From assembly GCA_963850905.1 (NCBI GenBank), contig CAWKMU010000003.1, positions 512,001 through 576,000 on the forward strand: DNA of 64,000 bases. The letters are read 5' to 3'. Of the stretch, positions 808 to 48,486 are shown piece after piece. Both the position numbers and the translations under genes were made by a program. Position 1 is the first letter of the stretch. Each line of letters opens with the position of its first letter. The notes beneath the pieces were generated by a model. The model was not told where the DNA came from and made no database searches. It saw only the letters and a list, made by a program, of their open reading frames with translations. The DNA comes from an uncultured Gemmatimonadales bacterium (GTDB lineage: Bacteria > Gemmatimonadota > Gemmatimonadetes > Gemmatimonadales > Gemmatimonadaceae).

Positions 808-1751
808 ACCGTCGCGAGGCGGCGAAACCGTCCACGCGGGCCGTCTCCCCGTCGCCGGCGTTGACGAATCTCGATAAGGTCTTCTTCCCCCGCGACGGCT
901 ATACGAAGGGCGACCTGGTCGACTACTACACGCGCATGGCCGCCCAGATTCTGCCCGTCATTCGCGACCGGCCGCTTGCGCTCAAGCGATATCCAGACGG
1001 CGTCTCCGGCCCGTTCTTCTTTCAGCAGAATGCGCCCACCGCGGATCGCGTGCCGCGTGGGGTGCGCGTCGAATCCGTGCCTGTCGTGCTGGACGGCGCG
1101 TCGCACCCACGGCTCATCGGCGGCGACCTCGCGACATTGCTGTACACGGTGCAACTGGGATGCATTGGCGTCGATCCGTGGCACGCGCGCATTCGCACGC
1201 TCCAGTATCCAGACTATACGATCATTGACCTCGATCCCGGCGAGGCAGTGCCTTTTGCGCGCATCGTCGAGGTCGCGCTCGGGGTCAAAACCGCTCTCGA
1301 TGCGGCGGGGCTGCACGGCATCGCGAAGACGTCGGGCTCTCGCGGCATTCACATCTATATCCCGCTGCCGACCAGGACGTCCGAGCCTACCGCGCTCGCT
1401 GCCGCCCAGCACATCGCGACGCGCGTCGCCCAAGCGCACCCACGCGAAGCAACCATCCTCCGCGGATTACGGGATCGCGGAACTGACACGGTCTATCTCG
1501 ACTACTTGCAGAACGCACGGGGCAAGACCGTTGCAGCCGCGTACTGCGTGCGTGCAGTGGCGGACGCACGGGTCTCCACACCGCTCGAGTGGTCGGAGCT
1601 CACGCGCACACTCGACCCTCACGCCTTCACGCTGCGCACGGTCCCCGATCGTGTGGCTCGTCGGGGCGATCTGTGGGCTCAGGCCATGAAGAAACGCAAT
1701 TCCGCCGCAGCGCTCCGCGACCTGTTGCGGGAATCGCGCGGCACGAAATAG
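804..1751 (+). CDS. DNA ligase D polymerase (primase-polymerase) domain protein
   Basis: LTNLDKVFFP, KRYPDG, IIDLDP, KTSGSRGIHIY, YLDYLQN, VSTPLEW. The GTG start overlaps the upstream stop (GTGA). Confidence 0.92.
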   Translation: MNRREAAKPSTRAVSPSPALTNLDKVFFPRDGYTKGDLVDYYTRMAAQILPVIRDRPLALKRYPDGVSGPFFFQQNAPTADRVPRGVRVESVPVVLDGASHPRLIGGDLATLLYTVQLGCIGVDPWHARIRTLQYPDYTIIDLDPGEAVPFARIVEVALGVKTALDAAGLHGIAKTSGSRGIHIYIPLPTRTSEPTALAAAQHIATRVAQAHPREATILRGLRDRGTDTVYLDYLQNARGKTVAAAYCVRAVADARVSTPLEWSELTRTLDPHAFTLRTVPDRVARRGDLWAQAMKKRNSAAALRDLLRESRGTK

Positions 1752-8463: not shown

Positions 8464-8738
8464 AAAAGGCGGGGTCAGGGGTCAGGGCCCGGGGGTCAGG
8501 AAACAAATCGAACGGCCGATCACAGTGCGTCGCGACCGGCCTTGGACCAGTAGGGGCGACGCACTGCGTCGCCCGCCGTTGCCGTTGTCGTTCGCGTTGT
8601 CGTTCCCTGATCCCTGGCCCCTGACCCCGCCGTTCTAATTGCCGTTGCCGTTCCCCTGACCCCTGACCCCTGACCCCGCAGTTCAGTCCCCAACCCTGTG
8701 TTGCCCTGAGGCACAGAAGCGACTTAGCTTCCCCAACC

Positions 8739-9033
8739 TGCCCCTTGGTGTAACTGGCAACACGCCTGACTCTTGGAGGGTTTTCGGGACACCACGTCGG
8801 AAACGACGTGTGTGAATGCGCTCAAATTCGGCGAACGGTGTCACATCCCAACGCCGAGCCAAGCCGGGCCTGACCACCGGACCGGAAGGTGTAGAGACTC
8901 GACGGGCGCGACCTGACCACCGCGGGTGAAGGTCAAGACAGAGTCCGGGCCACGAACGCGCCGGCGGCGCGGCGGCGAAAGCCGAAGTGGTGGAGGGATC
9001 AGGAGAGTCCTGGTTCGAGCCCAGGAGGGGCAA
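8739..9033 (+). tRNA. tRNA-Gln(CUG), intron-containing (exon 1 8739-8773, exon 2 8996-9033)
   Basis: Joined exons give TGCCCCTTGGTGTAACTGGCAACACGCCTGACTCTGGATCAGGAGAGTCCTGGTTCGAGCCCAGGAGGGGCAA, a full cloverleaf: U1-A72 acceptor stem, anticodon stem CCTGA/TCAGG, GTTCGA T-loop. CCA is not encoded. Confidence 0.9.
8774..8995 (+). ncRNA. Group I self-splicing intron (IC3-like), 222 nt, no ORF
   Basis: P element CTCAAATTCGGCGAA (8821), Q AACGCCGAGCCAAG (8850), R GAAGGTGTAGAGACTCGACGG (8885), S AAGACAGAGTCC (8935). Pairings: P3 GCGCTC/GGGCGC, P7 GACTC/GAGTC, P8 GACCT/AGGTC, GAAA-capped P2 and P9. Preceded by U and ends in G. Confidence 0.92.
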
Positions 9034-10454
9034 TGGCAGCGCGGTGGGTCGTCAGGCTTCGGCCATTCTATGAACGGAATCGACGGCCGGCCCCGGCACA
9101 TCGGGGCTGGTCGTTTTATTGGCCCCTGACGCCCCGTGCCATCGGCATCGTGCTCGGGCTAGGGCTCGGCGGAAGCGCGTGCAAGGACACGCCAGCCGCC
9201 TTTGGGTCGTCGCGCGCGGTGGCCCGGACGCATGCGGACGACCTGTTCACGAGTCTTCACCGCCGCTTCACCAACGTCGATCGCAGCCCGGAAGCAGCCG
9301 GCACTCTCGCCCGCATCGACCGGGCGGTGTTCACACCCTCGCAGGTGTTCGACGACTCGGTGCTCTGGAATGTCCTGCGGAGCGACAGCGTGCGCGTGAT
9401 GATGCTCACGGGACACGTCGCGCACGATCGGTATGTCGTCGCACAGGTGAACGAGACAGCAGCACCGCGCGAGCTCGCGGCTTCGCGCGATGAGATTCGC
9501 CTGGCACGCGTGGGACACGACCAGTATGAGTGGTCGACTTTTGTCGACCAGGTACTGGGTGCGGTGATGCCGGAGGATGTCGGCCGGATCGTGAGCTCCA
9601 TGCTCGCCGCTCCGGCCGCAACGGAGGAGACCGCGCTACACGCAGTGACGGCCGCGGCGTTCCCCAGGTCGAGCGAGGTGTTGGCGAAGGTGTTCTCCGT
9701 TGATAGCCTGCAGCGCACGCCGAGCGACGACGGCACGACCCTCGTCAACCTCGTAGTCGGCCTACATCCCGACGGGCTGCAGGCCGAATATCCCGCGTTT
9801 GCGACCTATTTGCGGACGTATCTCAATCCGGTGCGCTTGCGGTCTGTCGTTCGCGATGCGGCCGGCGGAGAGTGGTTCGATCTCGACCTCGGCGCGAATC
9901 GGCTCAGGATGCGCTTTCGCAGTGATCGTGATGGCCGCCTCGCGCCCATCGAGGGCCCACCACGGGCGATGCCCGACTCCCTCATGTTGGTCTCGGACTT
10001 TCACACCAAGGTCTGGCTCTTCTCGATCGGCATGACTGGACTCACGAGCAACGTCGCCCTTACGCATACCTCGCAGTCGCTGGGCGCCCAACTGACGTTC
10101 CGACAGGAGCCGCGTTGGCACTTGCCGCTCGCCGTCTCGCACTTCGTCAAAGGGTCCCTGCGCCGCCCCTTCGAGGGAAACGGCGCCCAGTATCGCGTGG
10201 CCGTGTCCAGCGCCGATGGGAACCACACCCTCCTCGAGCGAGAGGGCGACGTGACGGTTCAGGAAAGCATGATCATGCGGTGGTTCGGCGGCATCGGCGC
10301 ACACGCCTTTCGCGAGTTCTCCGGGCCAGCTGAAATCCAGGAGAGTGCGTATTTGGCGGCGGTGTTCAGCGCACTGCACGACGACGTCGACGCCGCGCTC
10401 ATGTCGCCCGCGACGGTCGCGGGTGACGTGGAAGCGGGAGCGAAAAAGCCCTAG
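9033..10454 (+). CDS. Hypothetical exported protein / putative lipoprotein
   Basis: Long ORF with natural composition and a lipobox-like LGGSAC near residue 50. The true start is probably downstream of 9033. Confidence 0.7.
   Translation: MAARWVVRLRPFYERNRRPAPAHRGWSFYWPLTPRAIGIVLGLGLGGSACKDTPAAFGSSRAVARTHADDLFTSLHRRFTNVDRSPEAAGTLARIDRAVFTPSQVFDDSVLWNVLRSDSVRVMMLTGHVAHDRYVVAQVNETAAPRELAASRDEIRLARVGHDQYEWSTFVDQVLGAVMPEDVGRIVSSMLAAPAATEETALHAVTAAAFPRSSEVLAKVFSVDSLQRTPSDDGTTLVNLVVGLHPDGLQAEYPAFATYLRTYLNPVRLRSVVRDAAGGEWFDLDLGANRLRMRFRSDRDGRLAPIEGPPRAMPDSLMLVSDFHTKVWLFSIGMTGLTSNVALTHTSQSLGAQLTFRQEPRWHLPLAVSHFVKGSLRRPFEGNGAQYRVAVSSADGNHTLLEREGDVTVQESMIMRWFGGIGAHAFREFSGPAEIQESAYLAAVFSALHDDVDAALMSPATVAGDVEAGAKKP
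9083..9120 (+). terminator. Intrinsic terminator downstream of tRNA-Gln
   Basis: Stem ACGGCCGGCCCCG / CGGGGCTGGTCGT followed by TTTATT. Confidence 0.65.
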
Positions 10455-10698: not shown

Positions 10699-10771
10699 TG
10701 GAGCTGAGGGGAGTCGAACCCCTGACCTCTGCAGTGCGATTGCAGCGCTCTCCCAACTGAGCTACAGCCCC
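10699..10771 (-). tRNA. tRNA-Ala(CGC)
   Basis: Reverse complement GGGGCTGTAGCTCAGTTGGGAGAGCGCTGCAATCGCACTGCAGAGGTCAGGGGTTCGACTCCCCTCAGCTCCA; G3-U70 pair, anticodon CGC, CCA not encoded. Confidence 0.96.

Positions 10772-46987: not shown

Positions 46988-48486
<1,499 letters not shown>

Follow-up and report, generated by a model that had tools for sequence, protein, structure and literature searches.

A group I intron between anticodon nucleotides 35 and 36 of a Gemmatimonadales tRNA-Gln(CUG) gene, with a sister intron in tRNA-Lys(UUU)

In the Azoarcus tRNA-Ile and Anabaena tRNA-Leu ribozymes, the P1 helix has 3 bp, the guide stands just 5' of P2, and GAAA loops close both P2 and P9; Zaug et al. 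are said to have reported in 1993 that the anticodon stem is relied on for exon alignment. The bacterial tRNA-intron family has been classed as IC3, with Leu.3Ug, fMet.2Ug, Ile2.5Ug and Arg.5Ug as its four classical settings, and a survey of a January 2017 genome set raised the host/site settings from four to 21, in 5292 genes (Williams 2020). The available portions of a bacterial group I intron review (PMC3984707) and of the tRNAscan-SE 2.0 preprint mention only Leu, fMet, Ile2 and Arg tRNA hosts, the preprint excerpt adding that the program was not designed for detecting such introns, and the available part of tRNADB-CE records Leu(UAA) introns in Burkholderia. In the literature, taken apart from the list of 21 types in Williams 2020, no bacterial tRNA-Gln came up as host to a group I intron, and the strings 'Gln.4Ug' and 'Lys.3Ug' were absent from the full texts searched, among which the image table of Williams 2020 did not figure.

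Here we describe a tRNA-Gln(CUG) gene of an uncultured Gemmatimonadales soil bacterium in which a group I intron of 222 nt separates nucleotides 35 and 36 of the anticodon. The gene occupies positions 8739-9033 (+) of the window, by which we mean the whole stretch of 64,000 nucleotides that was analysed (Table 1). A host of Gln(CUG) with a 35/36 site falls outside the four classical settings, as a sequence-only reading of this DNA had proposed and as the settings named in Williams 2020 bear out; the novelty which that reading saw in the locus is nevertheless weaker than supposed, Williams 2020 having 21 host/site types.

Three junctions combine a U before the intron and a G as its last base with a 7-nt anticodon loop, namely CUCU/GGA (Gln CUG), CUCUU/GA (Lys CUU) and CU/AGGGA (Pro AGG), and ARAGORN accepted all three as tRNA when the halves were joined by coordinates. 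BLAST of the 295-nt locus against 41 genomes, the window's own (G000) and 40 of the same order, gave a match in 37 (a tally that takes in the unpublished G016). In more than 20 relatives (for example G031, G037, G040, G005 and G008), query positions 1-35 and 258-295 adjoin directly at 97-100% identity. Because these intronless alleles read CUCUGGA, we set the junction as CUCU/GGA and the intron as 8774-8995, and for the same reason rejected the Lys(CUU) and Pro(AGG) junctions; the alleles thereby also fix the 3' intron boundary at G8995 independently. Joined at CUCU/GGA by coordinates, the halves were called by ARAGORN as a 73-nt tRNA-Gln(ctg) cloverleaf whose stems contain no mismatch. The sequence-only reading had arrived at the same host and site, and at two halves separated by 222 nt with a U before the intron and a G at its end; its coordinates proved exact, both bases are present, and the two checks it had named, a tRNA finder run on the spliced sequence and a survey of tRNA-Gln loci in relatives, bear it out, the halves being contiguous in more than 20 of the 41 genomes searched.

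The 5' exon ends in the loop bases C32 U33 C34 U35, and the remainder of the 3' exon consists of the T arm, AGGGGCA and A73, with CCA not encoded. The presumed glutamine identity has a counterpart in the genome's tRNA-Gln(UUG), whose acceptor stem (U1-A72), A73, G37 and A38 recur here. Since the G37-A38 pair of bases also occurs in that tRNA-Gln(UUG), the unusual G37 is a lineage trait. Both exons are identical to those of intronless alleles across genera. A search for a sigma-70-like promoter found none. Short arrays of the heptamers GGGGTCA, CCCTGAC and CCCCTGA, with 3.4-4.3 copies apiece, stand directly upstream of the tRNA gene, and relatives carry similar C-rich heptamers (CCCCAGA/CCCCAAA) at the equivalent place.

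Table 1. Coordinates of the split tRNA-Gln(CUG) gene, its intron and neighbouring features, with the paralogous Lys intron; positions are those of the window unless a contig is named.
Feature	Position	Strand	Details
Heptamer arrays	8471-8500, 8605-8628, 8653-8677		
5' exon	8739-8773	+	tRNA nt 1-35; acceptor UGCCCCU, D arm, anticodon-stem strand CCUGA
Group I intron	8774-8995	+	222 nt, U before, terminal G, 65.8% GC, without ORF
Internal guide GGA	8787-8789	+	directly 5' of P2
P1	U35·G8787, C34-G8788, U33-A8789		exon-guide pairing in alignment (helix 1)
P2 hairpin	8790-8814	+	GAAA loop 8800-8803; 6/10 pairs changed both sides (helix 2)
P3	8818-8823 with 8904-8909	+	99.1% paired, 4/6 pairs changed both sides
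P4	8828-8833 with 8852-8857	+	100% paired
P5	8837-8838 with 8847-8848	+	2 bp, inside P4; 100% paired; both pairs flip GC/CG
P6	8858-8860 with 8888-8890	+	
P6a	8864-8867 with 8882-8885	+	
P7	8894-8900 (GAGACUC) with 8941-8946 (GAGUCC)	+	A8895 bulged; 100% paired; pseudoknot with P3
P8	8910-8914 with 8930-8934	+	variable tip
P9	8950-8953 with 8987-8990	+	three-way domain 8950-8990
P9a	8957-8960 with 8968-8971	+	
P9b	8974-8976 with 8981-8983	+	GAAA loop 8977-8980
Omega-G	8995	+	G last before 3' exon in 19/19 aligned introns
3' exon	8996-9033	+	tRNA nt 36-73; G36 G37 A38, stem UCAGG, 5-nt variable loop
Terminator-like hairpin and T-rich tail	9093-9120	+	60 nt 3' of tRNA; consensus match only
Lys intron	G000:C3:2004305-2004536		guide GAG pairing with exon CUU

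We drew the fold from P1 to P9 by hand and mapped it on a MAFFT alignment of 19 introns (11 Gln-hosted, 8 Lys-hosted). Its 12 helices comprise 56 pairs; standard pairs fill 98.3% of the 1064 cells, and 24 of the 56 show changes in both partners. In 500 shuffles none of five measures was reached, and pairing fell to 33-39% when the partners were displaced by 1-3 columns. With the count restricted to the 10 complete Gln-hosted genes, 98.9% of 560 cells were paired and 14 of the 56 pairs were compensatory, which argues that the fold is kept by selection within the Gln host. The group I core is present, with helices P3 to P9 and the P3/P7 pseudoknot, and the P, Q, R and S elements are the strands of P4 and P7, the latter being the guanosine-binding helix of group I introns. 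These four elements had been read from the single sequence together with P2, P3, P4, P7, P8 and P9, and all the helices hold across the 19 homologues. The minimum-free-energy fold of the pre-tRNA was no better than shuffles (z -1.27); the centroid fold recovered the acceptor stem, D arm, P2, P4, P5, P9a and P9b. P5, which is extended with a GAAA or GAGA loop in the relatives L282 and L285, is much reduced here.

The P1 pairing distinguishes the two hosts. The last exon base, U, pairs with an invariant G three bases 5' of P2 as U·G in 19/19 introns. Next to it stand C-G and U-A in the 11 Gln introns, where exon UCU faces guide GGA, and U-A and C-G in seven Lys introns, where exon CUU faces guide GAG. 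In the eighth Lys intron the guide is GGG, with U·G at one of these pairs and the other cell unpaired in the alignment. The guide is thus matched to the exon, which is what the choice of splice site by P1 demands. For P10, the pairing of the 3' exon with the region 5' of the guide, inspection by eye gave nothing convincing or conserved.

The split gene escapes standard annotation. ARAGORN run on the window missed it, the sole tRNA call being tRNA-Ala(CGC), and a run of Rfam at gathering score over the whole window, in which the tRNA model was likewise silent on the gene, listed only tRNA-Ala(CGC) and a TPP riboswitch; the expectation that tRNA finders would overlook the locus was therefore sound. 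The two listed features are ordinary, the tRNA at 10699-10771 (-) and the riboswitch (60.6 bits) at 48382-48485 (-). A permissive Rfam search of positions 8600-9150 returned a single match, RF00028 (Intron_gpI), at 8758-8960 with 34.9 bits and E 2.9e-7. The covariance-model hit sought by the sequence-only reading thus exists, but its score lies under the gathering score of 50, which is why the intron is absent from the whole-window run. Rfam's group I set contains no bacterial seed, and the author who pointed this out works at 18-20 bits (Williams 2020).

Three entries of the ORF list run over the locus, 8683-9033 (-), 8841-9101 (-) and 8926-9129 (+), so that the earlier remark that the ORF track covers it refers to real entries. 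The longest stop-free stretch within the intron is 73 codons, on the opposite strand, and the intron is too short to hold an endonuclease gene, in keeping with the absence of a homing endonuclease noted at the outset. It had also been called compact and very GC-rich; 222 nt is indeed compact, but its GC content of 65.8% is that of its contig. By the output of tRNA finders on the available genomes, tRNA-Gln(CUG) is lacking from the window's genome and from no fewer than nine further Gemmatimonadales species, and in the window's genome tRNA-Lys(UUU) is overlooked as well. Split tRNAs overlooked in this way could be mistaken for an incomplete bin, for a reassigned codon or for reliance on wobble.

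A 20-nt motif in the P9 domain recurs without a change in at least 120 species-representative genomes from many phyla, including in Leu(UAA), Arg(CCU) and CAU tRNA introns. Among the matches listed, ARAGORN's intron mode combined with the U/G junction test placed 110 introns with this motif: 52 in Leu(UAA) at 34/35, 24 in Arg(CCU) at 36/37, 9 in CAU tRNAs at 33/34, 9 in Leu(CAA) with C at -1 (loci including L030, L040 and L099), 3 in Lys(UUU) at 34/35, 2 in Gln(CUG) at 35/36, and 1 each in Ser(UGA), Thr(UGU) and Arg(CCG) (loci L074, L087 and L095), with no host assigned for 8. Position 4 (35/36) occurs only with Gln among the 110 introns placed from the matches listed. The Ser(UGA), Thr(UGU), Arg(CCG) and Leu(CAA) hosts are non-classical settings, in other phyla. 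A separate 17-base variable-gap scan was too loose, with the intron in only 3 of 120 stretches among the matches listed and the rest mostly chance.

Across 85 Leu.3Ug, Arg.5Ug and CAU.2Ug introns, 81 columns are at least 95% conserved, and the window's intron keeps 75 of these. Of the six that differ, two belong to a single P5 pair, changed in both partners, and another is a G-to-A change in J8/7 (intron nt 165) common to the introns of the window's genus. The nearest Leu and Arg introns share 68-69% identity with the window's intron, and in a 124-row tree the Gemmatimonadales clade of Gln and Lys introns falls among Leu- and CAU-hosted introns. We take the window's intron to be an ordinary member of the bacterial tRNA-intron family.

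We determined the distribution of the Gln-type intron by scanning a specific 3'-junction pattern over one genome per species, 185,579 species in all. The scan gave 14 hits. Record titles place 12 of them in Gemmatimonadales, Gemmatimonadaceae or Gemmatimonadetes; the other two fell by chance in coding DNA of alphaproteobacteria. The 12 Gemmatimonadota hits comprise nine complete intron-bearing Gln(CUG) genes and three decayed ones. L272 keeps the complete intron and has its 5' exon replaced, all lost but the last few bases; L275 and L279 retain no more of the intron than its 3' third, followed by the 3' exon. By eye, the L279 remnant is preceded by sequence that could encode a transposase. Four of the nine complete genes are sequence-identical to those in G001, G002, G004 and G012 and were counted once, and a complete split Gln gene is found in 10 species, including that of the window's genome. 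A looser junction pattern, one that would catch A37-U38 Gln tRNAs, added seven hits, all of them chance matches in coding DNA. By these scans of one genome per species, the Gln-type intron appears to be found only in Gemmatimonadales. We also searched 401 evenly chosen genomes of the phylum by BLAST, scoring the two best candidates per genome; five (a tally that takes in the unpublished G086) gave an intron-like match at E <=1e-15, and the Gln intron appeared only in G000 and G004 among the two best candidates per genome.

RF00028 also matches two other places in the window's genome. The tRNA-Lys(UUU) gene at G000:C3:2004271-2004576 (locus L027, 122-427) is split as CUU/UUAA (34/35) by a paralogous 232-nt intron, and its junction is confirmed by intronless Lys genes in G007, G008 and G009. 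It is the only Lys(UUU) gene found in the genome, and ARAGORN missed it. A third group I intron lies in a 23S rRNA gene (L002, G000:C3:3192312-3195555; model match 1501-1744, RF00028 33.6 bits), just upstream of a conserved CCUAAGGUAGCGAAAUUCC stretch, and the intron's ORF at 1172-1720 (+) specifies a LAGLIDADG endonuclease (PF00961, E 7.9e-12).

The two tRNA introns are unevenly distributed among close relatives. Both are present in G000, G001, G002 and G004, only the Lys intron in G003, and neither in G005-G009 (with only the 5' half of the Lys gene matched in G005 and only 3' halves of it in G006), making the genus a natural series of both introns, Lys intron only, or neither. In the 124-row tree the genus's four Gln introns nest within the clade of its five Lys introns (99 SH-aLRT), and the same nesting reached 100/100 when leader and guide were left out of a 31-row tree. 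Outside this clade lie the other seven Gln introns, and forcing all Gln introns together cost 32.4 log-likelihood units (p-AU 0.009, a generous value because the group was chosen after the first tree was seen).

That the genus's Gln intron groups with Lys introns implies that sequence moved between the two genes. Either the Lys intron would have been copied into the Gln gene in the genus, or an older Gln intron would have been overwritten by gene conversion; the guide fits the recipient exon under copying as under gene conversion. We tentatively entertain a fuller account, though we would not quite back it at even odds, in which the Lys(UUU) intron was copied into Gln(CUG) or overwrote an older intron there, its guide changed from GAG to GGA, and the Gln 35/36 site was colonised or recolonised at least twice in the order. 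If true, this would be a recent natural retargeting of a group I intron between bacterial tRNA genes, by reverse splicing or recombination, for which sister species between them still show the donor, the recipient and the empty sites. The sister introns differ in the guide triplet exactly as their exons require, which makes guide retargeting and endonuclease-free movement testable. In G002, the Lys intron (L024) and the Gln intron (L007) share the P5 loop and P9a and have nearly the same P8; this Lys intron is 88% identical to the window's Gln intron, other Lys introns being 79-81% identical. The likeness within G002 looks like recombination between both introns.

We next consider how far the genome depends on the split gene. 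ARAGORN run on the assembly (6 contigs, 4.49 Mb, 82% complete) reported 47 tRNAs, including Gln(UUG) and Lys(CUU), with no Lys(UUU) and no other credible Gln(CUG) gene in the whole assembly, which answers the question of a second tRNA-Gln(CUG) raised by the sequence-only reading for as much of the genome as is assembled. One 89-nt 'tRNA-Gln(ctg)' call at G000:C3:1716143-1716231 (-) has poor stems, lies in apparently coding GC-rich DNA and is probably a false positive; such a call could mask the real gene's absence from annotations. BLAST found no intronless Gln(CUG) copy in G000, G001, G002, G004 or G012, and the split gene is the only Gln(CUG) copy found in 5/5 carrier genomes examined. Across 755 long GC3-rich frames, 76% of the Gln codons are CAG (13126 of 17197). 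Given the 82% completeness, the window's genome may hold a second Gln(CUG) gene, and wobble might in principle allow CAG to be read by tRNA-Gln(UUG).

Soil metatranscriptome runs contain parts of the window stretch. Four RNA-library runs from four studies each gave one contig of 269-329 nt spanning exon, intron and exon at >=90% likeness; these run from 8720/8756 to 9025/9049 with 3-9 differences and extend little beyond. The contigs are compatible with unspliced precursors of close relatives, a weak hint of transcription, and could be DNA carry-over. A contig from run X6 joins 8773 to 8996 exactly and continues into 150 nt of 5' flank; since this flank is unlike the window, we regard the contig as an intronless relative and not as a spliced product.

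We consider it likely, with a probability of about 0.85, that the locus is a working tRNA-Gln(CUG) gene with a spliced group I intron, a passenger that is inherited vertically and exchanges sequence with the Lys(UUU) intron. The splicing chemistry is expected to be ordinary. The whole 295-nt pre-tRNA would be transcribed, and the intron would fold into a P4-P6 domain and a P3-P7-P8-P9 domain with the P3/P7 pseudoknot. Its guide would pair with U33-C34-U35, the resulting short P1 would set the U35·G wobble at the 5' splice site, and the anticodon stem would keep both exons side by side. External guanosine would cut after U35; G8995 would then take over the pocket in P7, and U35, by its free 3'-OH, would attack before G36, so that the exons would be joined as the loop CUCUGGA and the 222-nt intron released. 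An intron without an endonuclease would then persist as a vertically inherited passenger that is sporadically lost, and the Gln intron would have exchanged sequence with the paralogous tRNA-Lys(UUU) intron of the same genome.

Three other explanations deserve to be weighed against this one. The gene could be dead, its intron never having been spliced here or being spliced no longer, with CAG read by tRNA-Gln(UUG) through wobble. Splicing is, after all, deduced rather than observed, the relatives L272, L275 and L279 have decayed, P5 is minimal, and a J8/7 base departs from the family consensus. A dead gene would nevertheless be hard to square with exons that are the same as those of intronless alleles across genera and with helices that stay paired through 14 compensatory changes within Gln-hosted introns; the loss would moreover fall on the sole Gln(CUG) copy found in 5/5 carrier genomes examined, CAG is the major Gln codon, and we judge a dead gene improbable. 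A long shot, too, is splicing that is non-autonomous or conditional, dependent on a host protein or chaperone or slowed in certain conditions, and that gates the supply of CAG- and AAA-reading tRNAs. The presence of sister introns in two tRNA genes of one genome would suit such a role, as would a P5 much reduced relative to, for example, L282 and L285 and the unspliced-form contigs assembled from RNA libraries. Contigs cannot measure levels, however, nothing ties the introns to any regulator, and the state of G005-G009, which are without both introns, favours a dispensable passenger.

The host might finally be tRNA-Lys(CUU), a reading to which we give next to no credence; the intron would then sit one nucleotide downstream, at 36/37, the site that the classical Arg and Ile2 introns use. 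The CUCUU/GA split obeys the U(-1)/omega-G rule and folds as a cloverleaf, and ARAGORN's intron mode makes the same call for the near-identical genes of relatives, but the CUCUGGA of the intronless alleles refutes it. The acceptor stem, moreover, is that of tRNA-Gln(UUG) and not that of tRNA-Lys(CUU), which exists elsewhere in the genome, and the guide GGA pairs with UCU, with U·G at U35. A spliced intron in a working tRNA-Gln(CUG) gene accordingly remains our preferred explanation.

The locus can thus be placed beside the systems with which we began. Likened by description only, it resembles the Azoarcus and Anabaena ribozymes in guide placement, GAAA loops and anticodon-stem reliance, and differs from them in a P5 of 2 bp with an 8-nt loop and in a P9 that is a three-way junction. 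The 17 further types of Williams 2020, as described in its text, are the same kind of element. With the classical bacterial tRNA introns it shares the anticodon-loop location, the U(-1)·G, the omega-G, a length of ~200-250 nt, the lack of an endonuclease gene and the same core; compared with these types, the host here is Gln(CUG), the site is 35/36 (Gln.4Ug in the notation of Williams 2020) and the guide is GGA. For bacterial group I introns, the range of known host tRNAs and sites is in this way widened beyond the four classical settings, to 35/36 within the anticodon.
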